DNA of 64,000 nt, taken from positions 99,140 to 163,139 of the forward strand of contig CAYJKV010000001.1 in assembly GCA_964371255.1 (NCBI GenBank), written 5' to 3'. Origin of the DNA: an uncultured Candidatus Saccharibacteria bacterium. Its GTDB lineage: Bacteria > Patescibacteriota > Andersenbacteria > UBA10190. The translations under genes and the position numbers were made by a program. The notes under the pieces are model-generated. The model did not search any database. It had not been told where the DNA came from and saw only the letters and a list, made by a program, of their open reading frames with translations. How positions within the stretch are numbered: position 1 is the stretch's first letter; every line of letters begins with the position of its first letter. Below are positions 21,236 through 44,241 of this stretch, piece by piece.

Positions 21236-21499
21236 AAGGAAACTTGAAGCACGCAACTGAAGAAGTTCGCCCTCAGGGATCCTGTGGGGAGAAGCAAATT
21301 GGCAATACCCCCTAAGGGGTCCCCTCGGGATAAACGTAACAAATCCGAAACTTGATTTAAGGTGAGGCTTGTTGCAGCGAGTTTCGCCGGAAGGCGACTG
21401 TCCTGCTGGACGGCAAATTCCAAAGGCAAAACTACAAACACTCGTTAGAAATAAGAACAAGATAAAAGTAAATAAGTAGGGATGTGATATTATTATGGC

Positions 21500-22888: not shown

Positions 22889-23070
22889 TGGTAAAGAGGT
22901 GAATCAGTGAATTGAGTAACTATGTTCGGTTGGTTGCTGGCATTGTTGTCGGTGGCTTGAGGCTCAATGCTTGGTATGGGGGGTGGTTCAGAAAAAGGGA
23001 CGAACGAGGTATAGTGATAAGGAAGTTTAATTATTTAGCTTTATATCTGCAGGAATGAAGGGATCGATTT

Positions 23071-24099
23071 ATGATAGGGATTGATATATCAGATCGTTCA
23101 ATTAAGATGGTACAGAAATCGAATGTGGGTGGAGACCCCGTGCAGTCTTTTTGTTGGCATGTGATCGAGGAAGGAGTAATTGAGCGGGGCATAATTATGG
23201 AACCCAAAAAACTAAGTCAGGCCTTAGTGCAGACGTTTAAACGGTGTCATTTAGCGGTGGATACAGATGATGCGGTGGTGGCATCGATTCCGGAAACACA
23301 GTCCTTCCTGCGGGTGATTGAGATGCCTGATATGACAGACGAAGAGACGGATGAAGGAGTACGATGGGAAGTAGCCCAACATATCCCATTTGGATTGGAA
23401 AATGTTTACATCGACTGGCAACCGATACCGTGTGGTCATCAGTCGGCTAAAGGAATTCGTGAAGTATTGGTTGGAGCGGCCCAGAAAAAAGTGGTTGATC
23501 CACTGTTGGTCGTATTGAAGGAGTTGGATTTAGATGTGGCGGCCTTGGAACTGGAAAGCCAGGCCATTGTGCGGGCGTTAATTTCACCGGAGCTGCAGAC
23601 CAAGCAAGGTATTCTTGTGGTAGATTTAGGCGGCAGTGCAACAAACGTTATTATCCATGACCATGGCGCTATGAGGTTTACGGCTAGTTTGCAGCACGGA
23701 GTCAGAAGGATAGCGGAAGCATTGCCAGCTAAGGACAAGGAGGGTCTGATAGTGCCCACCAATGAGGATTTTGAGCCAGAATTAGCTCGTCGTGTAGCGG
23801 AGGCCATGCGACCGGCACAAGAAGAGTTAGTGATGGAAATTAAGGGGATTGTTGAATTTTATAATGGTATTGATGCAAAACATGAGGTGACCGAAATCCT
23901 GCTGACAGGCGGTGGTTCCAATTATCCAGGACTAGACCGAGTCGTTGCTAAGTATTTTGATGATGTTCATGTGCAGCGGGGGAATCCGTGGGCCAATATT
24001 TTACCTCACAGCCAAATGAGCAAGGTGCCAATGTCACTGAAGGAGTCGGTGCATTTTTCCACCGCGATCGGTTTAGCGTTAAGAAAAATTGAAGCATGA
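23071..24099 (+). CDS. pilM: type IV pilus assembly protein PilM (copy 1)
   Basis: MIGIDISDRSIKMVQ N-terminus, actin-like ATPase fold motifs, and a DLGGSATNV phosphate loop. 342 aa. Confidence 0.8.
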   Translation: MIGIDISDRSIKMVQKSNVGGDPVQSFCWHVIEEGVIERGIIMEPKKLSQALVQTFKRCHLAVDTDDAVVASIPETQSFLRVIEMPDMTDEETDEGVRWEVAQHIPFGLENVYIDWQPIPCGHQSAKGIREVLVGAAQKKVVDPLLVVLKELDLDVAALELESQAIVRALISPELQTKQGILVVDLGGSATNVIIHDHGAMRFTASLQHGVRRIAEALPAKDKEGLIVPTNEDFEPELARRVAEAMRPAQEELVMEIKGIVEFYNGIDAKHEVTEILLTGGGSNYPGLDRVVAKYFDDVHVQRGNPWANILPHSQMSKVPMSLKESVHFSTAIGLALRKIEA

Positions 24100-24629
24100 A
24101 GGACGATATAAATCTCTTACCTAAGCCATTGGTAATAGGTCGAGAAAGACGGGCGTATTTGTTTGGTTTTGGCCGCTTACTGCAGCGGATTGCTTTGCTA
24201 TTAGTTGCTATAATTGTCGGGGAAGTAGTCGTGTATGGCGCTCACTATTATATAGATCAGACTATGGATCAGAGTGGGAAGGCCGATGAGCAAAGCCTGA
24301 GTACGACAGAACAAGCACAAAATGTGAATATGTTGCTGTCTTTGGTAGATAACACGCGCAAGCAATTTGTCAGCTGGTCTTTATTCAGTGAGGAAGTGCT
24401 TAATAGTGCGCCAAGAGAAATTACTATTAGCAAGTTGGAAGTGAAGGAGAAGCTAGGAGCATTAGAGGTGGTGGGTTATTCCAGTCGAAGAGCGTCGGTA
24501 TTGGAATACAAAAATATTTTAGCAGGGTTGAGTTGGGTGAAACGGGTGGATGCACCGCTACAAAACTATGCGATAGGGCCAGACGCCGGTTTTTCTTTCA
24601 GCCTAATTGTTGATAAGGGAGTACAATGA
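24096..24629 (+). CDS. pilN: PilN-like protein (copy 1)
   Basis: INLLP motif near the N-terminus and a single TM. Translationally coupled to pilM. Confidence 0.65.
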   Translation: MKDDINLLPKPLVIGRERRAYLFGFGRLLQRIALLLVAIIVGEVVVYGAHYYIDQTMDQSGKADEQSLSTTEQAQNVNMLLSLVDNTRKQFVSWSLFSEEVLNSAPREITISKLEVKEKLGALEVVGYSSRRASVLEYKNILAGLSWVKRVDAPLQNYAIGPDAGFSFSLIVDKGVQ

Positions 24630-25270
24630 AATCTTTACGCTTGAAAAAATTAATAATTACGAGGTTAATAGGATTGATTGTTGTCGTGTCGTTGGTAGGT
24701 TTAGTAATTGTCGCTGGACGCTTCGTGCAAGGGATAAGAATTCAACTAGCGGAAAGACAGTTAGTCTTGGAGGAGAGTTTAAATAATGCAGTGCATCGGG
24801 CAGCGGTAGCAGATAAACTGGTCCAATACGAACCAGAGATAAAGAGGGTGACTGATACTGTTCCGTGGCGTGATGGGATAGGGCAAGTGATTGAGATGGT
24901 GGAGTTGGAAGCAAAAAAGTGGGGAGTGGCTGTACTGGTACCGAAAATTAACGAGGAACCAAAATTTGATGAGAGTGGTGTCCCTGTTCCACAAACCGGG
25001 CCGACAAGGTTGATCCGCTTAAAAGTAGAGGCAACGGGTAACCCCTTGGCACTAATGAATTTTTTGCATAGTTTGGAAAATTTGCCCTATTTAATCAATC
25101 CCCTGTCATTTGTTTTAGATAATGAAGATGAGAGTGTAAACACAGTTGGTCCAGCAGCTTTGGCACCGGCTTTGTCGGGTTCCAAGGAAGAAAGAGAACA
25201 AAAAACAGTGCAGCAGTCTTCCTTAAAAGCGGATTTTCTTCTCACCGTGCGGGTAGAAGAACTTAAATAA
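24626..25270 (+). CDS. pilO: PilO-like protein (copy 1)
   Basis: Single N-terminal TM plus coiled coil. Position after pilN, with a 4-nt overlap. Confidence 0.5.
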   Translation: MKSLRLKKLIITRLIGLIVVVSLVGLVIVAGRFVQGIRIQLAERQLVLEESLNNAVHRAAVADKLVQYEPEIKRVTDTVPWRDGIGQVIEMVELEAKKWGVAVLVPKINEEPKFDESGVPVPQTGPTRLIRLKVEATGNPLALMNFLHSLENLPYLINPLSFVLDNEDESVNTVGPAALAPALSGSKEEREQKTVQQSSLKADFLLTVRVEELK

Positions 25271-25274
25271 TATT

Positions 25275-25625
25275 ATGAAAATTGATTGGCAAAGCATCAG
25301 TAATTTAGCGGACAAGAAAAGCTGGTATCAGATCAGCAGTCGCTTGCGGGTATTAGTGCATCAGGCACCGCGCATCTTGTTCATAAGACATAGTCATATT
25401 ATTGACATTATCGCGGTGGGTATGGGGCTGCTGTTGGCCTCCTATTTAGTCTTTCTATTGGTATTTAAACCACCAACCGACATTAACATGAATAATGCAC
25501 AAAAGTGGGATTTGCAGATAGACACCCTTAAAGATTTGAGTAATTGGGTAATTGAGCGTCAAAAGGAAAAAGAAAGAGTACTGGAATTTAACCGCAGCGA
25601 AATATTTAAAATGCCGATTAATTAA
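25275..25625 (+). CDS. hypothetical membrane protein (pilus module accessory?)
   Basis: 116 aa with one TM (IIAVGMGLLLASYLVFLLVF). It lies between the two pilMNO modules. Confidence 0.35.
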   Translation: MKIDWQSISNLADKKSWYQISSRLRVLVHQAPRILFIRHSHIIDIIAVGMGLLLASYLVFLLVFKPPTDINMNNAQKWDLQIDTLKDLSNWVIERQKEKERVLEFNRSEIFKMPIN

Positions 25626-25631
25626 AGACGT

Positions 25632-26684
25632 ATGATCGGGATAGATTTATCAGATCGTTCAATAAAAATTGTTGAAACCAGAGGGGACGAGAACCCTGTG
25701 CTACGGACTTTGTGTTGGTCACCTTTGGCACCAAATCTGCTAAGACGAGGTGTGGTGCAGGATGTGGCATTGGTCTCAGAGGCCTTGAAAGTAGCGATGA
25801 CGAAATGTTCACCCATTCCCGTCGAAGGCGGTGACGTAGTGGCTTCGATACCGGAGGTGCAATCTTTTGTCCGTGTCTTGGAAGTGCCAGCGATGTCCGA
25901 GAGGGAAATGGATGAAGCGGTACAATGGGCAGTGCGGCGACACATTCCGTTTGATTTGGACCGGGTTTATATTGATTGGGAGGAACTGGACCTGGCGTCT
26001 GATATGCCGCAGCACAAACAAGTGTTAGTCGGGGCGGCCCAACGCGATGTGGTGGATCCGCTGCTGACAGTTTTGGATAGTTTGGGTTTTAACGTGGTGG
26101 CTTTAGAACTTGAGGCACAAGCCGTGATGCGGTGTCTATTGCCACGAGATATTACCGAGACAAGGGATATTCGAGGTGTTCTAGTGGTTGATTTGGGGGC
26201 CACGTCGACGAATGTTATTTTATTTGATCAGGGAGCAATGCGTTTCACAGCTAGTGTGCAAGTGGGTGGCGATGATTTGACACAGCAATTAGCGCACGCG
26301 CTAAATTTAAAGCCGGCCCAGGCGATGGAAATCAAAGCAAAAGTTGGCGCTGGCTTCATTAAGGATGAACCGGCAGCAGCGCAAGCTTTACAGAGCGCAA
26401 CCTTGAATTTAGCCCGCATGGTAGAAAGAGCCGTACAGGAGATGACAGTACAGTTGCCGCGTGAACAGAGAATGAGAACAATATTGCTGACAGGCGGGAA
26501 TGCAAATTTGGTTGGTATTCGGGAGCTGTTTGGCAGTGTTTTCACTGGTATTCCTGTGCAATATGGCAATCCTTGGACGAATTTGCAACAAGAAAAGAGG
26601 CGAATTGGTCTTAATCTGACGGTCGGAGATGCCATGCATTTTACGACTGCGATCGGGTTGGCACTACGCGAGGTTGATTATTAA
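25632..26684 (+). CDS. pilM: type IV pilus assembly protein PilM (copy 2)
   Basis: MIGIDLSDRSIKIVE. Paralogous to copy 1, sharing VVASIPE.QSF.RV.E.P and DLG..STNVI. 350 aa. Confidence 0.8.
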   Translation: MIGIDLSDRSIKIVETRGDENPVLRTLCWSPLAPNLLRRGVVQDVALVSEALKVAMTKCSPIPVEGGDVVASIPEVQSFVRVLEVPAMSEREMDEAVQWAVRRHIPFDLDRVYIDWEELDLASDMPQHKQVLVGAAQRDVVDPLLTVLDSLGFNVVALELEAQAVMRCLLPRDITETRDIRGVLVVDLGATSTNVILFDQGAMRFTASVQVGGDDLTQQLAHALNLKPAQAMEIKAKVGAGFIKDEPAAAQALQSATLNLARMVERAVQEMTVQLPREQRMRTILLTGGNANLVGIRELFGSVFTGIPVQYGNPWTNLQQEKRRIGLNLTVGDAMHFTTAIGLALREVDY

Positions 26685-26699
26685 TATAACCAGCAAAAC

Positions 26700-27278
26700 A
26701 TGGCTCGTCATTTAAACTTGCTACCTGTCGAACGTCGAGAGCATTTAAGACGCGGTGCTTTGTTAGTGTCAAGTGTGCGGATTGTGAAAACGTTGCTGAT
26801 GGGGCTGGGAGTGATGTCAGGTGGGGCAGTGCTCATTGGATTAAGTTTGTGGGGTTTGACTTTTACTTATGCAAGTTCCGGAAGTTCAGAGCTAGAACAA
26901 CAAGTGGGGGCATACGTACAGTTAAAGGACATTATTGCTCGGCAAAATCAGGTGCTGAACCAAGTTAATCGTCTAGGTTCAGAGAGGTTAGTGTGGTCGG
27001 ATTATCTCGGGGGATTTCTATCGGAAGTTCCGCCCGGCACGACAATTAATATTTTAACAGCTGATACAACTAGCGGGATGGTGACTTTTTCTGGTGAAGC
27101 GCTCACAAGAAATTCCTTGGTGGTCTTTGAAGAAAGGCTAAGCCAATTAGAATGGGTGGCGTCTGTGGCAGCGCCGCGACAGAATTTATTACAAAGAAGT
27201 AATCCTGAGTATAGTTTCGAGTTGAAGCTCAAACCGATGGGTGGGGTAAGTTTTAATGATGATGCGATGGCTTTATGA
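26700..27278 (+). CDS. pilN: PilN-like protein (copy 2)
   Basis: LNLLP motif and a single TM. Confidence 0.6.
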   Translation: MARHLNLLPVERREHLRRGALLVSSVRIVKTLLMGLGVMSGGAVLIGLSLWGLTFTYASSGSSELEQQVGAYVQLKDIIARQNQVLNQVNRLGSERLVWSDYLGGFLSEVPPGTTINILTADTTSGMVTFSGEALTRNSLVVFEERLSQLEWVASVAAPRQNLLQRSNPEYSFELKLKPMGGVSFNDDAMAL

Positions 27279-27937
27279 GTAATAGTTTCACTAACCAAGG
27301 GACAAGCGCCGCTAAGGTATTAGTGGTCTTGAGTGTGGCGGTATTGCTACTAGCCGGCTTACAGCCATTTTTGTGGAGCTGGGTTAAAAATCGGTCAATA
27401 GCTTTACATGAATTGAGGATTCAAGCGGAACAAATAGAAGAAGTGAAAAAAAGAACAAAAGAAATGGAAGATAATTATAACAACCAAAAGATATTTGTGG
27501 CTCAACTTGATTCTGTCGTACCGCAGAGTCGCAACGCACTGCAGGTGATTGAGCGGTTGGAAACGGCAACTCAAGGATTAAATGTTAAGTTAGAGGTGTC
27601 GCGGATTGATGAAGGGGCGGAGCTGAAACTGGGGGAAGGAGCCGGGCCGGAAGAATCTGGTTTGGTCGAACCGGTGCCGGATCTTGCCAGAGATAATAGC
27701 AAACCGGGTAACTCGGTATTTCCATTATTTATTACGGTTACAGTAACCGGTAAGCCAGAAGCGTTAGTAGAATATATTGACGTGGTTGAACATGTCCAAG
27801 AATTATCTTATATACAAAAATTTACGATATCACCGGCAGTATCTGCACAAAACCTGACAGTTGAAGACAGCGAATTTCAGCTGTTAATGACGGTGGTATT
27901 TTATTTACAAGGACAACCTGATGGATCAATCGAATGA
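27275..27937 (+). CDS. pilO: PilO-like protein (copy 2)
   Basis: N-terminal TM plus coiled coil. 4-nt overlap with pilN2. Confidence 0.5.
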   Translation: MSNSFTNQGTSAAKVLVVLSVAVLLLAGLQPFLWSWVKNRSIALHELRIQAEQIEEVKKRTKEMEDNYNNQKIFVAQLDSVVPQSRNALQVIERLETATQGLNVKLEVSRIDEGAELKLGEGAGPEESGLVEPVPDLARDNSKPGNSVFPLFITVTVTGKPEALVEYIDVVEHVQELSYIQKFTISPAVSAQNLTVEDSEFQLLMTVVFYLQGQPDGSIE

Positions 27938-28256
27938 CAAACTATTAAATCGCTCTTGGCAAGAGTGGGTAAGAATCGGCGGCAATTACCTGGTAGTAAT
28001 TATTACTCATTCATGGGTGAGGGTTACTATAATGTTATTATTGATGCTCGCTCTGGCCTGGTTATCGTTCACCAGGGGATACATTCCGTTAACAGAGGAT
28101 GTGGAGTTGCCAGTCAGTGTACTGGAAAATAATCCTAGTCTAGATATCAGAACATTACAAACGATCAATACCGATCGGGCAGAACGGGTAAGACGAGAGA
28201 GGCTGGATTACTCTAGTTATGCCAGGGTGTTAGTGGCGCCTGAGAAAAATAATTAA
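27921..28256 (+). CDS. hypothetical small membrane protein
   Basis: 111 aa with one TM. Overlaps the pilO2 end. Confidence 0.3.
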   Translation: MDQSNDKLLNRSWQEWVRIGGNYLVVIITHSWVRVTIMLLLMLALAWLSFTRGYIPLTEDVELPVSVLENNPSLDIRTLQTINTDRAERVRRERLDYSSYARVLVAPEKNN

Positions 28257-33980: not shown

Positions 33981-34427
33981 ATGAAAACAGTTGTTAACAA
34001 AAGGGCAAGGTTTGATTATGAGTTGATTGAAAAATACGAAGGAGGGCTTGTTTTGTTGGGTACTGAAGTAAAGTCGGTGAAGGCGGGGAATATCAGTCTC
34101 AAAGGATCCTTTGTGACTTTTCATGGTGATGAACCATATCTAACAAACGCGACTATTCCGCCATGGCAGGTGATTAACGCGCCGGCCGATTATGACCCAG
34201 AACGGTCTCGAAAGATATTGCTTACCAAAGCGGAAATAAAAGAGTTGATAGGAGCGAAACAGACAAGGGGGTTGACAATAGTGCCTGTGCGTGTCTATAC
34301 TAAAGGACCTCGAGTAAAAATTGAGATAGCGTTGGCTAAGGGAAAGCAAATGGTGGATAAGAAGAAGGAAAAGAAGGAGAAAGATATTGCCCGGGAAACG
34401 CAAAGGTTTTTAAGAGGGAAAGAATGA
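33981..34427 (+). CDS. smpB: SsrA-binding protein
   Basis: 148 aa. RARFDYELIEKYEGGLVLLGTEVKSVKAGNISLKGSFV is a typical SmpB core, with a basic C-terminal tail. Confidence 0.9.
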   Translation: MKTVVNKRARFDYELIEKYEGGLVLLGTEVKSVKAGNISLKGSFVTFHGDEPYLTNATIPPWQVINAPADYDPERSRKILLTKAEIKELIGAKQTRGLTIVPVRVYTKGPRVKIEIALAKGKQMVDKKKEKKEKDIARETQRFLRGKE

Positions 34428-34648
34428 AATGTCCAATGACCAATTCCCAATGTCCAATCAATGACCAAATCCCAAAGATAATAGACACAAATTAATATCA
34501 AAATATAAACAGAAAATCTAAGGTGTTGTTTGTTGAATTTATAATTTGTTAGGATTTCGTGAAGAAGGGAGAGGTTGAGAGTAGTTAGTCTGACCGGCGC
34601 TGTAGTTTGCTAACGATGAGGGGCATGCCCTGTCGTTCGCGAACGACA

Positions 34649-35039
34649 GGGCATGTTAGGCTTCGATGGAATGTTGTTTGTTCAATTAGCGTGTAGTGAG
34701 GGGTGAATGACTCACTCAAATCAATTGTTCACAAAGTTACGTGCAAACTTATTTAGTCGCGTGAAGGCAGCTTTTGCTCCTTCATTTGCGCCAGCTTTCG
34801 CTTAATACCGAAAGCCATCGTGTTAGATCAGCCGTTGGATCTTCTCACGGTGTCAACCTAAACGGCTATATATATTGAGAATTGAGAGGCTTAATATACA
34901 AACTGCACTAAATCTCACACTGTCTGGAATACTTGGCTGGTCTGCTGGTTCCAGGTAGTGTAAAAAAATTAGTCCAGCTACACACGTAGAAAATTGGATA
35001 ATATCGTTTCAGACGGCGGTTCAATTCCGCCCATGTCCA
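34649..35039 (+). ncRNA. ssrA: tmRNA (transfer-messenger RNA)
   Basis: The 5' end GGGCAUGUUAGGCUUCGAUGG matches the tmRNA 5' consensus. The 3' end GACGGCGGUUCAAUUCCGCCCAUGUCCA has a T-arm plus acceptor strand that pairs with the 5' GGGCAUG, including a G-U at position 3 as in E. coli. CCA is not encoded. It lies immediately downstream of smpB. The candidate tag ORF at 34767-34805 encodes AAFAPSFAPAFA, ending in AFA as in some known tags. Confidence 0.75.
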
Positions 35040-35173
35040 CTGATATGAGGGAAGGGAGGTATCCCTTCCCTCATCGAAAAATTGCCTGGCAATTTTCCTG
35101 CTCCTATTCCACAAGGTGTCCTCAGTTTCCGGCGGAGCCGGAAATTCGGATTTAATTAAAATGTACTTGACCC
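35031..35173. repeat. repeat R1: ssrA 3'-end plus ~130-bp downstream unit with three palindromes
   Basis: Begins CCATGTCCACTGATATGAGGGAAGGGAGGTATCCCTTCCCTCA, then AAAATTGCCTGGCAATTTT, then TTCCGGCGGAGCCGGAA, then a T-rich run ending ATGTACTTGACCC. Copy 1 overlaps the true tmRNA 3' end. Confidence 0.85.
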
Positions 35174-35283
35174 TCTTTTTATTGACCCCCTTTTTACCAC
35201 ACCGTTGACATAATGAAAATAAAATTATACTTTAGGCAGTCCAGTTAAGACTGTTATTTCAACTTACAATAAAGGAATGGGCA

Positions 35284-36051
35284 ATGAATCCATACATCGG
35301 TATTACCGACTTCATGGACTTCGGACAAGTTCAGGAAATGTCGCAAGGGTTTGCCGCTCATCAACCGCTAGGATCAAACCGGATGTTACATGTGGGTGTG
35401 ATGATGAGCTACAAGACGCTTCATGGCATCCTGAGCAAGTGGCAAGATGTTTTCCCTTTGAAGGAACGGATTGCTAGCATCTTTTCCTCTAGCAAGGTGT
35501 ACAACTGTTTGCACTACGCGGACTACGACAACAATCCCGATCTCGGGAAAAGTCTTGCAACCGCGGTCTCTTATGGTGGCATTGGCATGCATGCCCTTCA
35601 ACTCGACATGACCTGGCCGGATCGGAATGAGATCGCAAAAGGAGTTCACACTTCGTGTAAGCAGATCGAAGTTATTCTCCAGATTGGCAAGAATGCACTG
35701 GAAGAAGTCGGCAACGATCCGCAAAGAGTTGTTGAGCGTCTAGGTGAGTATGAAGGCGTGGTCCAACGCGTATTGCTAGACAAGAGTATGGGGAGGGGGC
35801 TCGGCATGGACGCTGCTAATCTCATCTCGTTTGTGCGAGCAATTAGGAAAAGTTTTCCAACGCTCGGAATTGGAGTTGCTGGTGGTCTCGGACCGGAAAC
35901 GATTCAGTTGGTCGAATCGCTTGTCGCAGTGTTTCCGGATTTGAGCATTGATGCTCAAGGAAAACTTCGTCCGAGCGGGAACGCTCTCGATCCGATTGAT
36001 TGGGACATGGCTCGAACTTACCTTATTAAAGCCCATCAGCTTTTTGCCTGA
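35284..36051 (+). CDS. TrpF (phosphoribosylanthranilate isomerase)-like TIM-barrel protein
   Basis: N-terminal YIGITD and C-terminal VAGGLGPE...DLSIDAQGKLRPSG...KDxxxxxF echo TrpF motifs. No other trp genes are nearby. It lies between repeats R1 and R2. Confidence 0.45.
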   Translation: MNPYIGITDFMDFGQVQEMSQGFAAHQPLGSNRMLHVGVMMSYKTLHGILSKWQDVFPLKERIASIFSSSKVYNCLHYADYDNNPDLGKSLATAVSYGGIGMHALQLDMTWPDRNEIAKGVHTSCKQIEVILQIGKNALEEVGNDPQRVVERLGEYEGVVQRVLLDKSMGRGLGMDAANLISFVRAIRKSFPTLGIGVAGGLGPETIQLVESLVAVFPDLSIDAQGKLRPSGNALDPIDWDMARTYLIKAHQLFA

Positions 36052-36155
36052 TGACAATCTTGCAGCTCTCGCTCTTTGTAGTGAGAGCTTTTTTTGCTTA
36101 ATTTAGTAACACAAACAAACGAAATAACTCCGTCCGCAAAGTGTTCCAACCGTTT

Positions 36156-36289
36156 CCGCCCATGTCCACTGATATGAGGGAAGGGAGGTATCCCCTCCCT
36201 CATCGAAAAATTGCCTGGCAATTTTCCTGCTCCTATTCCACAAGGTGTCCTCAGTTTCCGGCGGAGCCGGAAATTCGGATTTAGTTAAA
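36156..36289. repeat. repeat R2 (copy of R1 including TTCCGCCCATGTCCAC ssrA 3'-end segment)
   Basis: About 95% identical to R1 over ~125 bp. It shares 16 nt of the tmRNA 3' end and diverges in the last ~15 bp. Confidence 0.85.
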
Positions 36290-36321
36290 TTTCAAACATC
36301 GGGTGTTTGAATTTTCTAACT

Positions 36322-36948
36322 CTAGTTTGGATTGTTTGGCTCGTTTTTGATTGAAATAGTAGGAGACGCACCTCTAACTTTAATACCCCCTTTGTTTGGC
36401 CGCTCAAACATGGCAAATTCCCTTAGTCTCTTTTGATTAAGTTCCTTCGACATTCTTATATTATCCTGGGCAAGACGTTCTGCTAAATTAACGGCTCTAT
36501 CAGCTAAGGCGCCTGTTCGCACGTTCTCGCTTTTTAAAGATTGGGTTAAGTCGGAAATATATTGATTCATTGTCTCTCGTGATTTTTCCGCCTCCCTATC
36601 CAGTCTGACTTTTTCCTCAATTACTTCAGTAACGGGGCGAAGTCCTCCCTTAATCCCAAAAAAATTAAATCCATCGAGTGAAAAGAGCAGATAAGCAAAA
36701 ACCCGTTTAAAATAAAGGAGTCCAAACAATGCCACTAATGGCCAGGGTAGTTTTTCCAGGACGGGAGCTGACTTTTCAATCAGTTGTAATAAGCGATTGA
36801 ATTGAACTTCAGAGAAAACATCAATGCTCGCATAGATACCAGCGCCAATTGTTCCCACGAAAAGGAGGAGCCCTAAAGTTATATCAATTCTTAAACTGAT
36901 ATTTTTTAATATTCCGATAATTTCTTTTATTCCTATCCTCCGAAACAT
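36322..36948 (-). CDS. hypothetical membrane protein
   Basis: 208 aa with 2-3 TMs at the N-terminus and a charged coiled-coil C-terminus. Flanked by the TTCAAACATCGGGTGTTTGAA hairpin repeats. Confidence 0.4.
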   Translation of the reverse strand: MFRRIGIKEIIGILKNISLRIDITLGLLLFVGTIGAGIYASIDVFSEVQFNRLLQLIEKSAPVLEKLPWPLVALFGLLYFKRVFAYLLFSLDGFNFFGIKGGLRPVTEVIEEKVRLDREAEKSRETMNQYISDLTQSLKSENVRTGALADRAVNLAERLAQDNIRMSKELNQKRLREFAMFERPNKGGIKVRGASPTISIKNEPNNPN

Positions 36949-37384
36949 ACCGTGATTATCTCTCTGTAGTCCTAGAAGTCAATTAGACGTGAGGCTGTAA
37001 ATATTGCGTCTTCATGAAATTCAAACACCCGACATTTGAAAAGCCATGACCAGGCCGATAAGGGCGATATCTGGCCTATCGGTATAATAATTGAGATTCA
37101 AGCAATATTTACATATCTGCATGTGTGCCGTAGAGCAGATGGTGCCAGGACTATTGCTGATACATTACACTTACTATTAGATTATGAGGGCTAGAAGCCG
37201 TATTGTGGTTATTCAAACATCGGGTGTTTGAATTTTTAATTTTTGGAATGCTGTTTTTTTTCAAAACAGACCAAATAAACCCCTTCGCATAGTCTGGCAT
37301 TGATTTTGCCACTAAATAGCCTCATTATACAGAACAGACGTTCTTTTTGGTTGGGGTACCTTACATTTCTAATTTTATGAAGGG

Positions 37385-37582
37385 ATGGGTCACATGGCTC
37401 AGTTTGATGATCTTGAGCTAAACAGAGCCGCAGAAGAGGTACACGCGGCTGCGCAGGCTGGCAGAGACGGTTATAGTGATGCTGCCACGCGCTGGCTAGA
37501 CGAGACAACGGATGCGGCCAAGCAAGCCATCAATGACAGAGTTGTCGAAAAGTACGGGGAGGAACATCGGCGCAAGTTTTAG
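37385..37582 (+). CDS. small conserved hypothetical protein (paralog A)
   Basis: 65 aa, with its own RBS (GAAGGGA) and a terminator hairpin after the stop. Its C-terminus AINDRVVEKYGEEHRRKF parallels the 41380 ORF. Confidence 0.5.
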   Translation: MGHMAQFDDLELNRAAEEVHAAAQAGRDGYSDAATRWLDETTDAAKQAINDRVVEKYGEEHRRKF

Positions 37583-37726
37583 TGTGCTAGAAGGCAAGCG
37601 AAGCATATCGACGAGCGCACAGTTCTTAGATAGCGACATCGAACAGATCCAAGACAACCGCCGTGGGTAACTGCAGCGGTTTTTTAAAATCGCTCTTGTA
37701 ATACAAGTAAACCAAACAACTTTTTT

Positions 37727-37895
37727 CGCAAAGTGTTCCAACTCGATCTCACCATGTCCACTGATATGAGGGAAGGGAGGTATCCCTTCCCTCATCGAAA
37801 AATTGCCTGGCAATTTTCCTGCTCCTATTCCACAAGGTGTCCTCAGTTTCCGGCGGAGCCGGAAATTCGGATTTAATTAAAATGTACTTGACCCC
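37727..37895. repeat. repeat R3 (third copy, contains CCATGTCCAC ssrA 3'-end segment)
   Basis: Near-identical to R1, including the tail ATGTACTTGACCC. It shares the upstream CGCAAAGTGTTCCAAC with R2. It is followed by a C7-T4-C9-T8 homopolymer tract. Confidence 0.85.
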
Positions 37896-38266
37896 CCTTT
37901 TCCCCCCCCTTTTTTTTCCTCTTGTTAATTATCGTCGCAAATGAATGAATTAAAGGAAATGAATTAAAGATTAATCCTTTAATACTATTTCATATGCCCT
38001 AGTCTACGACCTGCGAGGACATATGTTTGTGGTGAATACCATACATCCTTGACATGGAGACTGTAAGTATCTAGATTTGTTGGTTCAGGTTTGTTTGGTC
38101 GCTTCGCGTTGTTCATTACAGAAAGGTGGGTAAGATGCCAGGAGGAATTCGTTTGCAGCGTGATTCTCGTGAAGGGCGGCGTTGGTTGCACACGATTCGA
38201 GGTACTGTTACTGGCCATGCCGTACGGGTTACGGGTTGGTGGATCTTTAAGGAGCGGATTGCGATT

Positions 38267-38566
38267 ATGAAAATCGCTCTCGATCCAAGCCAAGTAGAGG
38301 CCTTCAACCGTTTGGCGCGCCAGACGATGTGCGTCGACGATAGTGGTAATTTGGCCGGAATCGCACAGGCTCTGAGTATTGGTGTAGCTGAGGCCAAGCT
38401 CGCAGAGTTTCCGGTGGGTGCCAATGTCGCTGTTGTGTTTGGATATGCTGGACCGATTGAGCAGTTCTTCAATGGCCGGGATCCTCTGGCAGTAGTTGAT
38501 ATCAAAATCATCACTGCAGATACCGTGCTGCCGAATGAGGTTAAGGTGTCCCTGGTAGATGTTTAA
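38267..38566 (+). CDS. hypothetical protein
   Basis: 99 aa from the internal ATG, with an AAGGAG RBS. The track ORF begins at 38126. A terminator hairpin ACCGCC..GGCGGTTTTTTA follows. Confidence 0.35.
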   Translation: MKIALDPSQVEAFNRLARQTMCVDDSGNLAGIAQALSIGVAEAKLAEFPVGANVAVVFGYAGPIEQFFNGRDPLAVVDIKIITADTVLPNEVKVSLVDV

Positions 38567-38702
38567 CTAAGGCCTGACACACCCGTCCATCGAACGTAAC
38601 CGCCCAAGTCTCTTTCATGGGACCGTGGCGGTTTTTTATTGGGCGAAAATAAAAAGCGGGTTAGATACAATTGTTTGAGCAATTATATTAACCCGTTGTC
38701 AG

Positions 38703-39644
38703 CTATGATTTCGGAATCGGCTGGTGGCATGACACTCGCGAGCGCATGTACTGCCATGATGCGTCGTTGGAAACGAAAAAGGCGACGATGTACAGCAGGA
38801 TGCCGCAAAACTTGCTTATTGCTACCGACTCGCCAAAGAAGAGCATTCCCGCGATCATGGTGGTAGAAAGATAGGTACCGTTCATGACCAGACTTTTGAG
38901 AGCAATGCCAGCACCGGATTTGTAGCTCATCACCTTGAAGGACCACATCGCCAGAACCAGCAAACCGACAACAAACGAGAACGCGTATATGCGCAGAATG
39001 TTGTTTGTGGTTGGCAGGATGATGGCAAACGAATTTAAGCATGACAAGGCAATGAGGCAACAGGCCAGTGTTCCGACACCACCCCAAAAGTTTTTAGCCA
39101 TGGGGTGAATCTGTTTGATCCAACGGGAAAGAAGTTCATTGACCACGCCGAGCACCATGACACCGCCTGACAACCATACCCAGGCAGGCAAGGAGAGTAA
39201 TTCCGTGAGGCTTGGCAGTCCCAGAACGACATAGCCAGCGAAAATGCCGAGGATGAAGCCACCCAGGGTGCGCAGACTAAAGCGGTCTTTGAAGACCAAT
39301 GAATCAATCACGGCACTGGGGAAAATCGCCAGAGTGATGATGAACGTGGAAACCCCGATACTGCCGTTGAAGCGTGGCAGAAATACGCTGAAAGCGAGCA
39401 CGGTCATAAAGAAGGCGACAATACCGAACGCTAGTGCGCCGAAAAGCAAACGTTTGTCACACCAGGTAGAGATACGGCGGCGACGCAGCACGCCATAGCC
39501 GATGGTGATTTGCACGAGGCTGATGATGAGCGCTGCCAGAACCATGTGTGCAAACAAAGTGCTGGCGTAACCGACTAACTTCTGCAGGATTTTGGTGAAC
39601 GTTTTAGTAAGTGCTTCACCGAACGACCATAGTACCCATTGCAT
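38703..39644 (-). CDS. polytopic membrane protein, EamA/DMT-like transporter
   Basis: 313 aa with about 10 TM helices. The size and topology fit the drug/metabolite transporter superfamily. Confidence 0.4.
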   Translation of the reverse strand: MQWVLWSFGEALTKTFTKILQKLVGYASTLFAHMVLAALIISLVQITIGYGVLRRRRISTWCDKRLLFGALAFGIVAFFMTVLAFSVFLPRFNGSIGVSTFIITLAIFPSAVIDSLVFKDRFSLRTLGGFILGIFAGYVVLGLPSLTELLSLPAWVWLSGGVMVLGVVNELLSRWIKQIHPMAKNFWGGVGTLACCLIALSCLNSFAIILPTTNNILRIYAFSFVVGLLVLAMWSFKVMSYKSGAGIALKSLVMNGTYLSTTMIAGMLFFGESVAISKFCGILLYIVAFFVSNDASWQYMRSRVSCHQPIPKS

Positions 39645-39920
39645 CGTAAAACCCCTGGAGGATTAGATGGCAAGTCCGTATCGTGTTGGTAAGGAACGAC
39701 TGCTAAAATTAGCAGATTTATAGGAAAGAACAAGAGTAAGTGGAGTTTTTCTTTGCTCAAGGTTAGGCGGGATTACAAAGAGTTTTAGAATTTGACGGAA
39801 TTGATAAATATTGTTACAGGTTAGTGTTGTGTAGATACGACAGTACGTTCACAATTTTTGGTTTTCAGGTAAATCAGACAGAACCGAGAATGTCTGGTTC
39901 TGGAGAAGGAGTATCGTACC

Positions 39921-41216
39921 ATGTCAACATTTGATCCGCCTCTCGAGGCTGCTGGCAATTCGACAGATGAGTTTGATCCTTACTATAAATGGCTATCAAT
40001 TCCACCAAATCAGCAGCCGCCTAATCTCTACCGTTTATTAGGGGTTGAACCATTTGAGGAAGATCGTGAAGTTATTAGCTGCGCAGTTGATCGGCAAGCG
40101 GCTTATGTCCGTTCCTGTAAACTTGGCCAGCGTGGCAATTCATGTGAAGATGTCCTAACTGAGATTTTTCAAGCGAAGGTTTGTTTGTTGGATCCCGTGC
40201 GCAAAGCCGAATACGATCAAGGGTTACGGGACCAACTGACCGTAGTCGTCAAATCAGGTGTGGCACAAGTAGGTATTAGACAAGCTGGTCAACCCAAGCG
40301 GCGCAAAAAGAAGAGTGTTTTGTGGGAGGTAACCAAGACGGTGTTGGGCGGTATTGGAGGATTATTCTTTGCCACCCTGATGCTGTGGTATGGCCTTGGT
40401 GTTGATCCGTTGGGTGTTATGGCGCCTAAGGAGCCCAACCTCTCTAAAGCTCAGGTCGAGGCAGTAGATCGTGACAATGCTGACCAGCAGTTAAAAAGTG
40501 AGCTCAAGAGAGCCCATCAAGAGGGGCAGGCAGCAAAACGTAAAATTAACAACCTGCAAACAGACAATGTGGGACAAGGGAGAAGCCTGGCAGGCAGACA
40601 GCAAATAAAATCAGCAGAGGACTTGGGATGGATAGACCTATTGAAATTGATCGACGTTAATAAACATGTCGTCGTTGGCAGATGGTCTCGTAACAAAGAC
40701 GGGGTAAGCACAGAACCGGCCTTAGGTTCCCGAATAACCGTTCCTAGTTTTTTAGACGGTAGCTATGAGATAAGCGTCGATTTTACCAAGCAGACGGGTA
40801 ACGAATCTGTTACTGTGATATTGCCTGTCCACACCACTAGCTGCGTTTTTTATCTGAGTGGGTGGGAGAATTCAGTCCATGGTCTAGGCCTTGTTGACGA
40901 AACATATCCTGGCTCTTGGCGGGAAAATTATGAATTGGCCAAGAAGTTCCTGATTGTCAATAACCAGCGTTACCGTTTGGATATAAGCGTGAATATCCAG
41001 AAGGACACTGTAACTATCGATACCCAGCTCGATCGAAAGCCGCTCTACTCTTGGCAGGGGAAGATTGATAGATTATCGATCTCCTCTTCTACAACTATGC
41101 CCAATCGTAATTCATTGGGACTGGGAGCTTCCCAGGGCAGGTGCACTTTCCATCGGGTGGAACTACGTCTTTTGGGGTCAGGCACTGGCGCATCGGTTCT
41201 TTCGAACCTCAAGTAG
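39921..41216 (+). CDS. membrane-anchored protein with J-domain-like N-terminus
   Basis: The N-terminus DPYYKWLSIPPNQQPPNLYRLLGVEPFEEDREVISCAVDRQAAYVRS...KAEYDQGL resembles J-domain helices II-IV but lacks HPD. One TM follows (VLGGIGGLFFATLMLWYGLGV), then a coiled coil and a ~200-aa C-terminal domain. Confidence 0.45.
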   Translation: MSTFDPPLEAAGNSTDEFDPYYKWLSIPPNQQPPNLYRLLGVEPFEEDREVISCAVDRQAAYVRSCKLGQRGNSCEDVLTEIFQAKVCLLDPVRKAEYDQGLRDQLTVVVKSGVAQVGIRQAGQPKRRKKKSVLWEVTKTVLGGIGGLFFATLMLWYGLGVDPLGVMAPKEPNLSKAQVEAVDRDNADQQLKSELKRAHQEGQAAKRKINNLQTDNVGQGRSLAGRQQIKSAEDLGWIDLLKLIDVNKHVVVGRWSRNKDGVSTEPALGSRITVPSFLDGSYEISVDFTKQTGNESVTVILPVHTTSCVFYLSGWENSVHGLGLVDETYPGSWRENYELAKKFLIVNNQRYRLDISVNIQKDTVTIDTQLDRKPLYSWQGKIDRLSISSSTTMPNRNSLGLGASQGRCTFHRVELRLLGSGTGASVLSNLK

Positions 41217-41379
41217 GGGAATGGAAATAGCTAGTACGTTACCCACATAAATTGCTGTGGGTTTTTTTATTGGTATAAGCAGTAAGAATACAGTGGCCGT
41301 TTGACGAGGATTGCTAAGGTGTTAACATGTCTGGTTCGGTGAAGGAGTTGTACTTTTGGGTTTTTGAAAGGGTTTAATT

Positions 41380-41568
41380 ATGAGTCGTTGGGATGATGAT
41401 GTGTTGAGAGAGGCGGCTAATTATGTCCATTATGAGCTTGGTAATGATCGGGATGCATACCAAGCAACAGCGCGACGGTTTTTGAATGACGACAGTACGG
41501 AGGCGCTGCAGGCAATCAACGACAAGGTGGTTGATTTGTTTGGGCATGATTATCGGGTGCGCTTTTAG
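41380..41568 (+). CDS. small conserved hypothetical protein (paralog B)
   Basis: 62 aa. Its C-terminus AINDKVVDLFGHDYRVRF is paralogous to 37385..37582. It has its own RBS and terminator (CCGTCTAC..GTAGACGGTTTTT). Confidence 0.5.
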   Translation: MSRWDDDVLREAANYVHYELGNDRDAYQATARRFLNDDSTEALQAINDKVVDLFGHDYRVRF

Positions 41569-41722
41569 TGGACTGCCTTTTGTCTTAGAGAAGTAGAACC
41601 CTTTGTCACCGTCTACCAAGCACCGTAGACGGTTTTTAAAAGTTGTGCCTAATCTTCGCGGTGATTGTTGTTGACATAGACTGGATAATGCAGTAGTTAG
41701 TAGATAGTTCTCTTTATGTTAG

Positions 41723-41995
41723 GTGTTTGGCAAATCTTCTCTGGGGAATGGAAAAATGAATTGCAAACAAAAAGGTTGTAACAGCGATTTGAGTACAGGG
41801 CGGGAAATTCCAATTCGTACGGGTTGTGCAGCGTTTCGTCAGGGAATCGCGTGTCCAGCCTGTGGCCGGGTCCATTTCAGTGATGGGTTGCTTGTCTTCA
41901 ACCGACAGCACCATGAAGTATTTCTTGACGGTGATGACATGGTGAACCGCGACCAAGATGGAGTTGAGACAAGTCGGTTTCTGGTAGGCACCTGA
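41723..41995 (+). CDS. possible small zinc-ribbon protein
   Basis: CKQKGC...CPACG cysteine pairs. The overlapping antisense ORF is equally possible, so this call is weak. Confidence 0.2.
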   Translation: MFGKSSLGNGKMNCKQKGCNSDLSTGREIPIRTGCAAFRQGIACPACGRVHFSDGLLVFNRQHHEVFLDGDDMVNRDQDGVETSRFLVGT

Positions 41996-42153
41996 GAACG
42001 TCGTGCTGCAGCCGCTTGGTCAGAACCCCTTCATCCTTTGACATGGCTTAGGGTGAGTGCGTTAAGGGTTCTTTTTTATTGTTGGCAAGATAGGTATGGC
42101 CTCAATTGAGAAGCGTCGGGGGCAATTAGCGCCGGAGTTAATGGGGTCTTGAT

Positions 42154-42182
42154 TTGACATTATAGGAAGACTCGTATATAAA
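42154..42182 (+). promoter_or_regulatory. sigma70-like promoter upstream of csrA
   Basis: TTGACA, then a 17-nt spacer, then TATAAA. The downstream leader contains GGA motifs (CAGGAT, AGGAGGAG) overlapping the SD. Confidence 0.45.
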
Positions 42183-42245
42183 TTTTACGGTTGTGTTCTT
42201 TTTAGATATCGGGACAGGATTCCATTTGGGCAGGAGGAGAAGATC

Positions 42246-42449
42246 ATGCTAGTACTCTCGAGGAAAAAAAACGAGTCGATTGTCATCAACGATGATATCA
42301 CGATAGTAGTTGTGGAAATTCGTGGTGACAAGGTTCGGCTCGGGGTCGATGCACCGAAAGAGGTTCCTGTGCACAGGCGCGAGGTATACGAGGCGATTCA
42401 ACGAGAACTCAGGGATAGTGAGGTTTTGCCAGAAGATGAGACTGGTTAG
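42246..42449 (+). CDS. csrA: carbon storage regulator CsrA
   Basis: [51 protein letters not shown] is a near-canonical CsrA. 67 aa. Confidence 0.9.
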
Positions 42450-42609
42450 CTTTCTTCCTTTTGTGGGTTCCTGTCCGCGTCAGTAAATTTTACAAAATTT
42501 CCTGGCGCTTTTTTATATCAAATCAAGTTTGATGAGTTGTGCCTAGCTTTTGTGTCGTGGTTTGGCGGAGTGCTTGACATTCCTTGCTGGTTTTTGTTAG
42601 GTTAGAAAT

Positions 42610-42711
42610 ATGAATTTAGCACTAGCACAATTCGGTTGGTACAGCCTGTTTATGATGATTATTCTGTTCGTGATGAACGAACATGTGCTAGGTATTGATG
42701 TAAGCGCCTGA
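42610..42711 (+). CDS. candidate small hydrophobic peptide (33 aa)
   Basis: ATG...TGA encoding MNLALAQFGWYSLFMMIILFVMNEHVLGIDVSA. It lies between a TTGACA -35-like element and a strong terminator hairpin at 42741-42772. Not in the track because it is under 60 aa. Confidence 0.25.
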   Translation: MNLALAQFGWYSLFMMIILFVMNEHVLGIDVSA

Positions 42712-42740
42712 AGAATTAATAAATAGACCTTTACATGAGC

Positions 42741-42772
42741 CCCTAGCACATAGCTAGGGACTTTTTGTTTTG
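42741..42772 (+). terminator. rho-independent terminator
   Basis: CCCTAGCACATAGCTAGGG stem-loop followed by ACTTTTTGTTTTG. Confidence 0.6.
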
Positions 42773-42802
42773 TACCTTTGTACCTTTGAAAGTTAGGTTT
42801 GT

Positions 42803-44173
42803 GTGTCGTTATCTGAAAGGAGTGGTAAGAGTATGGCTTCTGTGGGTTTGAATCTGACAGGCTTTAAGAGTGAGACAGAGGTTCTCGTCCAGATTGCTCG
42901 TGACCTTGGGCAGTACCACCGTGAGGGTAGGCAGAGTGATTTTATCAGGACGTTAGAGTCACTTGGTATGGATACCGATGAGGCACGGCAGTATTGGGAG
43001 GCGTTGTTGCCATCAAAGGAATGCAACGGTCAGTGGAGGCATGCACGCAACAATTCCGAGCTGGCAGGCTTGCTTGGAGTGCTTTTGGACGGCCAGAAGA
43101 TCTTGCGTAACCGCTTGCTCTATCGGCTGGTTGAGTGTCACTTTCCAGACATTCTGCAGGCTCGGTTTACGGGACTTTACCACTTGGGTGGCAAGGCCAG
43201 CCGAGGTAACCATCCTGAGCGGCGCATGGTCCATTTCGACAAGTTTCCTTTGGGCAGAGATGGTCAGTCAATGGCTGTTCACTACCTCTACAAAGGTGTT
43301 CAGCCGGCGCAGTTTGCCGCAGAGGTTATGAGGGCAGCCGTTCCATTGCAAGAGGTCTTGGGTGAGGCGTTGGGCATTAAGATGGCTGAGTTCATCTTTA
43401 ACCACAAAATGTTGATTCCTCCCCCGACGGTAGCACGGCTTCTAGCAAGAGTGATCGAAGCTGGTCAACAGGGGCAGTCTATCACTGTCGTAGGGGCTTT
43501 TTGTCCGGATTATGCCTATGAAGAAACGGGGAATCCACAGATTCCCTATCGTTACACCTTTGATGGCCTCGGCCAAGGTGTCGGACTAGTCGCTCAGCAG
43601 TTTGCGCGCATCGTGCCTGGCTTCTCTCGACTCCTCGCTGAGCTTGGTGTGTCGCACCAGATCGTGCTGGCGATTGGCGATTTCGAGGCTGATTCTCAGG
43701 CAGTACTTGACCGCGTTGGTGTTGATCGCAACGAATTTGTTCGGCGCTGCCAGGGTTCACTCGATGCGTTCCAACAAAGGATTCCCAACGACATTCCATT
43801 ACAGCTCGAGCTATTCGCAGCAGCTCGGGGTGGTGAACGGTTTCGTCGTTACGCGACTGAGGCCACTGCTCGGTTCCTGCAGGACGATTTTGGCCATATG
43901 GTCGATGTTTATCCCAGTCTGAGTAACGTTATTGCACGAATTCCTGCGCAGTACCAGACCTTTTACGAGCGTTGGTATAAGTGCGGTATGGACGATAAGC
44001 AAGTGCGTGGGATTGTCTTCGCTCAGGGGGGTGAATATTCAGCCATGGCTCGCATCTTCACCGAGGATTTCGGCAGCAATATTGTGGTTCTAGCTGGCGA
44101 CCGGCCTGAGATGCATCTCTTTAACTGTCTGTATCAGGCGGTACCAGCGTTGTGTGCCAAAAGAGCTTATTAA
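42803..44173 (+). CDS. hypothetical protein, unknown family (456 aa)
   Basis: Long ORF with GC richer than its surroundings. I recognise no motifs in it. Contains ITVVGAFCPDYAYEETG and GGEYSAMARIF segments. Confidence 0.5.
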   Translation: MSLSERSGKSMASVGLNLTGFKSETEVLVQIARDLGQYHREGRQSDFIRTLESLGMDTDEARQYWEALLPSKECNGQWRHARNNSELAGLLGVLLDGQKILRNRLLYRLVECHFPDILQARFTGLYHLGGKASRGNHPERRMVHFDKFPLGRDGQSMAVHYLYKGVQPAQFAAEVMRAAVPLQEVLGEALGIKMAEFIFNHKMLIPPPTVARLLARVIEAGQQGQSITVVGAFCPDYAYEETGNPQIPYRYTFDGLGQGVGLVAQQFARIVPGFSRLLAELGVSHQIVLAIGDFEADSQAVLDRVGVDRNEFVRRCQGSLDAFQQRIPNDIPLQLELFAAARGGERFRRYATEATARFLQDDFGHMVDVYPSLSNVIARIPAQYQTFYERWYKCGMDDKQVRGIVFAQGGEYSAMARIFTEDFGSNIVVLAGDRPEMHLFNCLYQAVPALCAKRAY

Positions 44174-44241
44174 CTTTCTTCTCTTGTTCCCTGCCCGTTG
44201 TTATTCTAGACTACGGGCAGTTTTTCTTTAATATTATATGT

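Follow-up and report, generated by a model that had tools for sequence, protein, structure and literature searches.

We analyzed a 64-kb stretch of DNA (hereafter, the window; contig CAYJKV010000001.1 of assembly GCA_964371255.1) from an uncultured Candidatus Saccharibacteria bacterium assigned to Andersenbacteria, and identified an array of three near-identical repeats directly downstream of ssrA, the gene for transfer-messenger RNA (tmRNA). The first copy (R1) contains the true 3′ end of ssrA. In the two distal copies (R2 and R3), a short duplicate of this 3′ end is followed by the same ~120-nt trailer, which we term unit U. The three copies bound two cassettes of 1.1 and 1.6 kb, with one or two genes each. 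The array is genuine and, in the population sampled, fixed. With moderate confidence, we attribute it to the tandem accretion, at the ssrA 3′ end, of two integrase-less islets resembling cis-mobilizable elements (CIMEs), which would have entered through a site composed of the ssrA-derived core and U, most likely with the enzyme acting in trans. The components of the array are as follows.

34649–35040, plus strand: ssrA, the tmRNA gene (Rfam RF00023)
35026–35172, plus strand: R1, composed of the true ssrA 3′ end (35026–35040), U1 (35041–35160), and the start of right flank A
35284–36051, plus strand: p255, the gene of cassette 1, encoding a TIM-barrel protein of unassigned function
36106–36289, plus strand: R2, composed of left flank B (36106–36150), a 15-nt copy of the ssrA 3′ end (36155–36169), and U2 (36170–36289)
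36322–36948, minus strand: p208, a gene of cassette 2, encoding a predicted membrane protein (ORFan)
37385–37582, plus strand: p65, the small gene of cassette 2
37698–37893, plus strand: R3, composed of left flank B′ (37698–37742), a 10-nt ssrA copy (37752–37761), U3 (37762–37881), and the start of right flank A′

Alignment of the three copies defined a 130-nt core with 98.5–100% identity (R1, 35031–35160; R2, 36160–36289; R3, 37752–37881). R1 and R3 are identical at 130/130 positions, and the R2 core shows two differences, a T>C change, by which hairpin 1 loses a base pair, and an A>G change close to the right end. Exact 35-nt and 27-nt probes matched only at 35031, 36160, and 37752 in the 64 kb, with 0 matches expected from shuffled sequences. 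The ssrA-derived part, 15 nt in R2 (TCCGCCCATGTCCAC) and 10 nt in R3, corresponds to the acceptor 3′ strand and the discriminator. No further copies of the ssrA 3′ end were detected in the window, or in the relatives within their available flanks. The first-pass annotation, which was made from the sequence alone, had described two cassettes delimited by three repeats, each starting with the ssrA 3′ end, and the exact probes and the core alignment agree with this description. The hairpins that it reported are also present, as is the 9-bp inverted repeat, which it took for a candidate protein-binding site; the positions are as follows.

35045–35074 (repeated at 36174–36203 and 37766–37795): hairpin 1 of the unit, with a 13-bp stem
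35078–35096 (repeated at 36207–36225 and 37799–37817): perfect 9+1+9 palindrome AAAATTGCCTGGCAATTTT, read as AAAATTGCC-T-GGCAATTTT
35124–35146, plus strand: hairpin 3, with a GC-rich 10-bp stem followed by the U-rich tail UUCGGAUUUAAUU, terminator-like

Folding of the unit returned three hairpins (z = −3.5 and −4.1). U matched no known RNA family at E values up to 5, and hairpin 3 is the sole part of U that is conserved in the ssrA trailer of the sister species. The sequences flanking the core also recur in part, a feature absent from the first-pass annotation. Left arm B is common to R2 and R3, with an exact 16-mer (CGCAAAGTGTTCCAAC) and 69% identity across 60 nt, and this 16-mer occurs nowhere else in the window. 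Right flank A is common to R1 and R3, which are identical up to 35172 and 37893, respectively, and then continue as a related C/T-rich tract; right flank C of R2 is unlike right flank A. The three junctions read ssrA-U-A, B-U-C, and B′-U-A′. Together, B, the core, and U span ~190 bp, which is about the size of an arm-containing attP. A C8T8 homopolymer run, a slippage-prone tract, lies at 37905–37920 between R3 and p143, the first gene past the array, and its counterpart in the flank after R1 is a tandem TTGACCC(C/T)CTTTTTA duplication.

Look-ups with smpB (the gene upstream of ssrA), p255, p208, and p143 recovered contigs of one European Nucleotide Archive project, from many of its samples. 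In at least five independent sample assemblies, contigs run from one unique flank through R1, R2, and R3 to the other, with the flanks unchanged and 99.8–100% identity (L002/L010, L007, L008, L012, L131, and L132). The same layout was found in every contig recovered, all from one population (99.7–100% identity), and the array is missing from the nearest other species.

We next consider the ssrA 3′ end in related genomes, in which the tmRNA gene was located with Rfam; nhmmer and ARAGORN did not detect it there. Three species with ssrA 94.7–96.7% identical share the upstream synteny, and each has a different sequence from the tmRNA 3′ end on. The relatives compared are listed below.

L025 and L112–L119, sister species (SmpB 90%, ssrA region 94.7%): an unrelated 190 nt, then a 41-nt match to the end of the unit, then an insertion sequence (IS) and an island
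L124 (ssrA region 96.7%): a third distinct sequence, then a short open reading frame (ORF) resembling a GIY-YIG nuclease (judged by eye, no scan)
L120 (SmpB 74%): a series of small genes without annotation downstream of the tmRNA 3′ end

In L112–L119 and L124, the upstream gene order from the pilus genes to smpB is the same as in the window, and homology stops at 35041. The 41-nt match aligns window positions 35131–35169 with L112 positions 5031–5071. The trailer type of L124 is common to L016, L021, L022, and L023 and is probably ancestral. Since this type is absent from the window, U appears to be a derived, lineage-specific replacement and not the native trailer.

The 23-nt ssrA 3′ end of the window is common to 12 GTDB species labelled Andersenbacteria or Saccharibacteria, which places the organism in the Candidate Phyla Radiation (CPR). 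In one relative with the identical 23-nt end (L018), a prophage-like element occupies positions 1404–5544. It encodes a large serine recombinase (514 aa, 1404–2948, minus strand) with Resolvase, Recombinase, and Zn_ribbon domains, whose stop codon falls inside the ssrA 3′ end, followed by a tyrosine integrase and a small terminase subunit. The synteny break of the relatives at ssrA, together with the L018 prophage at that end, indicates that the tmRNA 3′ end is an insertion and recombination junction in this clade. The reading of the repeats as an integration scar, already put forward in the first-pass annotation, is borne out by the stop of synteny at the tmRNA 3′ end in three close species and by the recombinase-bearing prophage in a relative.

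The sister-species locus is itself complex. In L112 (4840–14224), ssrA is followed by an IS (DDE_Tnp_1; its 20-bp inverted repeats, at 5208 and 6226, are perfect) and then by a defense-type island with genes for GmrSD+HNH, an EcoRI methylase, DUF2130, an HTH_17/MerR protein, and Fic. Most sister-species assemblies break at the IS.

The arrangement in the window resembles that of islands at tRNA and tmRNA genes: the intact target gene stands at one end, its 3′ part recurs as a direct repeat at the other, and synteny is interrupted exactly at the target gene. As in CIMEs, which retain attL and attR, each cassette lies between near-identical core+U sites and lacks a recombinase. Integration is favored because the left edge of the repeat lies within ssrA, a classic attR-type scar. 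Sequential Campbell-type insertion is favored over simple tandem duplication because the contents of the two cassettes are unrelated and not paralogous.

From these junctions we infer circular intermediates, an order of events, and the type of enzyme. Each cassette would have been a circle carrying a ~190-bp att-like site made of left arm B, 10–15 nt copied from the 3′ terminus of ssrA, and the three-hairpin U, and recombination within the shared core+U against the resident site would have occurred twice. Starting from a resident site ssrA-U-A′, insertion of the p208/p65 circle (attP = B′-U-C) would have produced ssrA-U-C ... B′-U-A′. A second insertion, of the p255 circle (attP = B-U-A) into the new proximal site, would then have generated the three observed junctions. 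An ssrA-specific recombinase of a related element, like that at the same ssrA end in L018, may have acted in trans. The 130-bp identity would have been maintained by gene conversion, unless the events were very recent. Neither excision nor polymorphism nor a helper enzyme was seen, so present-day mobility is unproven.

The search for a recombinase encoded in the window was negative, in line with the first-pass annotation, which had noted no integrase. Neither a self-encoded integrase adjoining the att site, in the cassettes or elsewhere in the 64 kb, nor a recombinase overlapping ssrA or its repeat in the manner of the serine recombinase DsiB of Dehalococcoides was recognized. Pfam returned no recombinase among the window ORFs of at least 180 aa, five of which had no Pfam match at all. 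In a phmmer screen with XerD, Hin, and lambda Int, covering ORFs of at least 120 aa in the window and the related loci, there was no match in the window. This screen found only the tyrosine integrase of L018 and missed the large serine recombinase of the same element, which was identified by ORF reading and Pfam, so its negatives are weak for that class.

These negative searches weigh against tandem accretion by a site-specific enzyme, as do several other observations. The ancestral-type trailer, expected distally in the array, was not detected in the 64 kb, and U had no match in phage records, plasmid records, IMG/VR, or JGI metagenomes. The block of identity extends over 130–142 bp, of which ~90% lies outside ssrA, and is far longer than a site-specific recombinase needs; in both length and position, it fits homologous recombination or gene conversion no less well than the action of a site-specific enzyme. 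No presence/absence or alternative-junction variants occur in at least 23 contigs, a weak test with all of them 99.7–100% identical; because they represent one population, the contigs are uninformative on older history, including the ancient fixed structure considered in the first-pass annotation. Finally, where pseudo 3′ ends of an RNA gene accompany p255 homologues in other genomes (L030, L036, L072, and L099), they separate the RNA gene from p255, which lies outside the repeats and is not bracketed by them.

The product of p255 has no Pfam, NCBIfam, PHROG, or PADLOC match. Its AlphaFold2 model is a confident TIM barrel (predicted local distance difference test score, 91.7) whose structural matches are generic TIM barrels only (TM-scores of 0.5–0.6), and its sequence shows a weak match to ribulose-phosphate epimerase (E = 3.6e-4). 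Of the label "TrpF-like" used in the first-pass annotation, the TIM-barrel fold stood; an identity as TrpF/phosphoribosylanthranilate isomerase did not, as neither that family profile nor any other in Pfam matched. More than 1000 homologues occur in CPR bacteria at 60–83% identity, and distant homologues (30–38% identity) occur in huge phages. Between organisms whose SmpB and IF3 proteins are ~50% and ~35% identical, respectively, p255 is 76–83% identical, and it is far more conserved than these housekeeping proteins. No match reached 84% identity or more, a level that an orthologue in the sister species would probably attain, with the caveat that the metagenome-assembled genomes are incomplete.

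The second cassette differs in character. p208 matched only itself among 5.8 billion proteins; its local GC content is 0.38–0.40 versus 0.45–0.50 around it, and a promoter-like site precedes it at 36982–36955. p65 (65 aa) has a paralogue of 62 aa, p62, encoded 4 kb downstream (41380–41568; 40% identity, E = 3e-14). A terminator-like hairpin after p65 was read from the sequence and was not called by the terminator scan. The cargo looks accessory, considering p208 as a low-GC ORFan and the conservation pattern of p255. Further features within and beyond the cassettes are listed below.

36064–36089, plus strand: intrinsic terminator of p255 (called by the scan)
36291–36311, also 37020–37040 (inverted) and 37212–37232: hairpin TTCAAACATCGGGTGTTTGAA, resembling a repetitive extragenic palindromic (REP) element or a terminator
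38135–38566, plus strand: p143, the first gene past the array, which begins a stretch of uncharacterized genes reaching ~44 kb

The three copies of the TTCAAACATCGGGTGTTTGAA hairpin are confined to cassette 2 within the window, and the motif also occurs in the ssrA island of the sister species (L112 7999–8018 and 12024–12043). From ssrA to the M24 peptidase gene (35200–44200), all eight of the ORFs that we tested gave zero significant matches in Pfam, PHROGs, NCBIfam, and PADLOC; for the last three, the scans omitted the CsrA gene and a 90-aa ORF of the same interval. In the sister species, the 10 kb that follow ssrA contain no homologue of any gene in 35200–44200. The variable region may reach well beyond R3.

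Upstream of the array, ssrA is preceded by a conserved block whose final gene is smpB.

33981–34427, plus strand: smpB, encoding the tmRNA partner (PF01668 match), the final gene of the conserved synteny block

SmpB of the sister species is 90–95% identical to that of the window, and the upstream gene order is alike. The Rfam RF00023 match (34649–35042; 120 bits, E = 1.9e-46) covers a full-length tmRNA gene, whereas ARAGORN reported zero tmRNAs or tRNAs across the whole window. The gene proper terminates at the discriminator A35039, and the CCA is absent from the encoded sequence. A perfect 32-nt palindrome (CATGCCCTGTCGTTCG followed by CGAACGACAGGGCATG) lies at 34624–34655; the tmRNA starts at 34649, and the right arm of the palindrome is its 5′ acceptor strand. 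The palindrome is 97–100% conserved in relatives and may form a leader hairpin sequestering the tmRNA 5′ end in the precursor. Farther upstream (window 9700–28000) lies a type IV pilus/competence-like cluster with PilB/T2SSE, PilC/T2SSF, two PilM proteins, and a prepilin with an N_methyl domain, which is kept in relatives and has potential relevance to DNA uptake.

Among the alternatives, an unlikely but coherent one is that the cassettes were inserted at U by homologous recombination over the 130–142-bp repeats, with no site-specific recombinase. This could proceed through RecA-dependent Campbell insertion and excision of circles, or through double-crossover replacement by transformed, U-flanked DNA; the "minimal mobile elements" of Neisseria are akin to such homologous exchange. 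The long, near-perfect identity suits recombination or gene conversion better than an integrase core, the window has no recognized recombinase, and the pilus/competence-like cluster (PilB, PilC, PilM, and prepilin) could import DNA. The repeats flanking p255 in other lineages are unrelated in sequence, in keeping with a process driven by homology with no sequence preference. However, homologous recombination leaves two features unaccounted for, namely the start of the repeat within the 3′ terminus of ssrA and the conserved non-ssrA motif B abutting the ssrA fragment in both distal copies. Recombination between direct repeats, moreover, mainly deletes, yet the array is fixed.

Somewhat more doubtful is an origin with no mobile element, in which a three-hairpin terminator or insulator of ssrA was copied behind two other transcription units and kept for its function. 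Every copy indeed lies downstream of a plus-strand unit (ssrA, p255, and p65), the strong predicted structure ends in a terminator-like hairpin, and the array is unchanged in all contigs. Several of the repeats that bracket p255 elsewhere are hairpins (L052, L068, and L034), and in L027 an inverted trailer copy closely follows a minus-strand gene at its 3′ end and is oriented to that gene as the trailer is to ssrA. Yet p255 and p65 have their own terminators upstream of R2 and R3, and a terminator would have no need of 10–15 nt of the tmRNA gene and a shared arm B. Simple duplication yields neither the junction pattern nor unrelated cassettes. U is also lineage-specific, with synteny breaking at ssrA in all close relatives, and control genes are seldom bracketed by repeats.

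The distribution of p255 raises a further reading. It is patchy, with a MazG-like gene as a recurrent neighbor. p255 lies on the 3′ side of ssrA in L026–L031 and L036, in either gene orientation; in L030 and L036, where it is oriented opposite to ssrA, pseudo ssrA 3′ ends lie between the two genes. A perfect 190-bp inverted repeat of the ssrA trailer surrounds the MazG-like gene and p255 in L027 (7277–7466 and 8829–9018), L028, and L029, and the inverted copy in L026 is 92% identical; the L027 segment is potentially invertible. From L026–L031 and L036, p255 looked likely to be a fixed neighbor of ssrA, a view we rejected: most of 80 further p255 loci have no smpB or ssrA nearby, and the sister species lacks p255 in the 10 kb after ssrA.

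These 80 loci also provided counts of the tRNA neighborhood. A tRNA lies within 700 nt of p255 in 12/45 non-redundant loci versus 7/74 for control genes (p = 0.02), and its 3′ end faces p255 in nine of the 12. Tandem pseudo 3′ ends of tRNA-Ser (three copies ~100–150 nt apart) stand between the tRNA and p255 in L099 (6800–7110, minus strand), and a split pseudo 3′ half of tRNA-Tyr stands in the same place in L072 (4100–4270). Such duplicated 3′ ends are not specific to p255, as a similar rate was found at other tRNAs (2/20 vs 2/18). Direct repeats of at least 30 nt bracket p255 in 7/52 loci versus 4/212 control genes (p = 0.001), two of the four bracketed controls being the cassette that adjoins p255. 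Three-copy arrays including p255 recur in L068 and L102 with repeats unrelated to those of the window; in L068, three copies surround two cassettes, and the neighboring gene is unrelated as well. No recombinase was found within 5 kb of p255 in the 80 loci by phmmer, a screen blind to large serine recombinases.

This wider pattern of tRNA/tmRNA 3′ neighborhoods and repeat bracketing is suggestive. The bracketing and the pseudo 3′ ends beside p255 in L030, L036, L072, and L099 also count in favor of tandem accretion in the window, as does the accessory look of the cargo. A speculative and rather improbable interpretation is that p255 with its flanking direct repeats constitutes an undescribed, integrase-less, single-gene mobile unit of CPR bacteria that settles 3′ of tRNA and tmRNA genes and builds short arrays. 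The ssrA array of the window would then be one instance and the arrays of L068 and L102, with their unrelated repeats, others; movement would depend on an unrecognized trans-acting enzyme, or on DNA uptake and homologous exchange.

We give considerably less credence to an integron-like or otherwise new cassette system, in which ssrA-U would serve as an attI-like site and B-core-U as an attC-like site for an unrecognized recombinase encoded elsewhere. Each cassette does comprise its gene or genes, a terminator, and a ~190-bp B-U site, three-copy p255 arrays with unrelated repeats exist in L068 and L102, and the same phmmer survey found no known recombinase near p255. Nevertheless, the unit folds into three separate, independent hairpins with no end-to-end symmetry in place of the single long bulged hairpin of attC (the R/L box consensus was not searched for), and we rejected a match to the attC sites of integrons or of clusters of attC sites lacking integron integrases (CALINs). 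The cassette layout was rejected likewise: there is neither IntI nor another candidate enzyme, p208 lies on the opposite strand with its own promoter-like site, and p255 has its own terminator. The ssrA-island model, furthermore, already covers the anatomy. A miniature inverted-repeat transposable element was also dismissed, as no inverted repeat links the unit ends and the three copies are clustered in 64 kb rather than dispersed.

An assembly artefact, raised in the first-pass annotation as collapsed or duplicated contig ends, is ruled out for practical purposes: several contigs start or end within the repeats (L001 at 35040, L013 at 35031, L011, L003, L009, L133, and L134), as expected because the repeat exceeds the assembler k-mer, but the independent assemblies described above traverse all three copies with unchanged unique flanks.

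Very little is known of gene gain and exchange in the tiny genomes of CPR/Patescibacteria. Under tandem accretion, the present locus presents the tmRNA gene as a working insertion hotspot in an Andersenbacteria-like clade, where three species with near-identical ssrA carry three different downstream contents and one relative carries a serine-recombinase prophage at the site. It further suggests that insertion can leave one-gene units bounded by an unusually long tmRNA-trailer repeat. If the p255 pattern is true, it would point to a simple route of cassette exchange in CPR bacteria, and p255 would be worth characterizing; if the pattern fails, the locus would be an ordinary decayed island array.

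Several known systems share features with the array. Integron cassette arrays and CALINs are rows of small cassettes in which a structured recombination site, similar in sequence from one cassette to the next, stands behind each. Unlike these, the window lacks IntI and the attC architecture, and its cassettes have their own promoters and terminators, are of mixed orientation, and are anchored at the tmRNA gene. Like REP elements and terminator repeats, the unit is short, hairpin-rich, and non-coding, and is repeated behind genes; unlike them, its copies contain a piece of the tmRNA gene, have a left arm in common, cluster at ssrA, and adjoin pre-existing terminators.

Tycheposons of Prochlorococcus form islands at tRNA and tmRNA genes, in which successive integrations push older elements inward (bioRxiv 10.1101/2020.12.28.424599). 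The window is similar to their arrays in its streamlined genome, its islands beside tRNA/tmRNA genes, and the scattered partial tRNA repeats and degenerate remnants. In contrast, tycheposons carry tyrosine recombinases and replication modules, with partial tRNA repeats of ~40 nt versus the 130-nt trailer unit. In CIMEs, attL and attR are kept while the integrase and transfer genes are lost, and tandem arrays form by integration into a resident att site (PMC5704250). The cassettes of the window likewise keep att-like ends without integration or transfer genes. CIMEs are defined by the decay of integrative and conjugative or integrative and mobilizable elements (ICEs or IMEs) and by mobilization through a cognate integrase, whereas the likeness of the window is one of sequence, with no conjugation context.

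The closest parallel is provided by the tandem ssrA islands of Dehalococcoides (McMurdie et al. 2011), which are bounded by 20-bp ssrA repeats and lie downstream of a single tmRNA gene (PMC3146451). There, the ssrA repeats abut a conserved element-side motif that does not align with ssrA and was read as a mark of the integration point; islands without an integration module were proposed to be cis-mobilizable; and DsiB, a large serine recombinase encoded on the reverse strand, overlaps ssrA or its repeat at attL (PMC3146451). Similarly, the units of the window stand in tandem directly after the tmRNA gene, with ssrA or its repeated 3′ end as the boundary and with extra conserved bases around the repeat that include arm B on the element side, and L018 shows the DsiB-like layout. 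The differences are that the units of the window measure 1.1 and 1.6 kb and not many kilobases, that none has an integration module, that the repeats contain only 10–15 nt of ssrA but ~120–130 nt beyond the gene at 98.5–100% identity, and that the host is a CPR bacterium. The suggestion in the first-pass annotation of a kind of array that is not well described was therefore too broad, since tandem ssrA islands, integrase-less units among them, and accretion of ICEs and IMEs are known (PMC3146451; PMC5704250). The known kind to which the array belongs is that of tandem tmRNA-gene islands including integrase-less units; new here are the size of the units, the trailer-heavy repeat, the lack of integration genes, and the CPR host.

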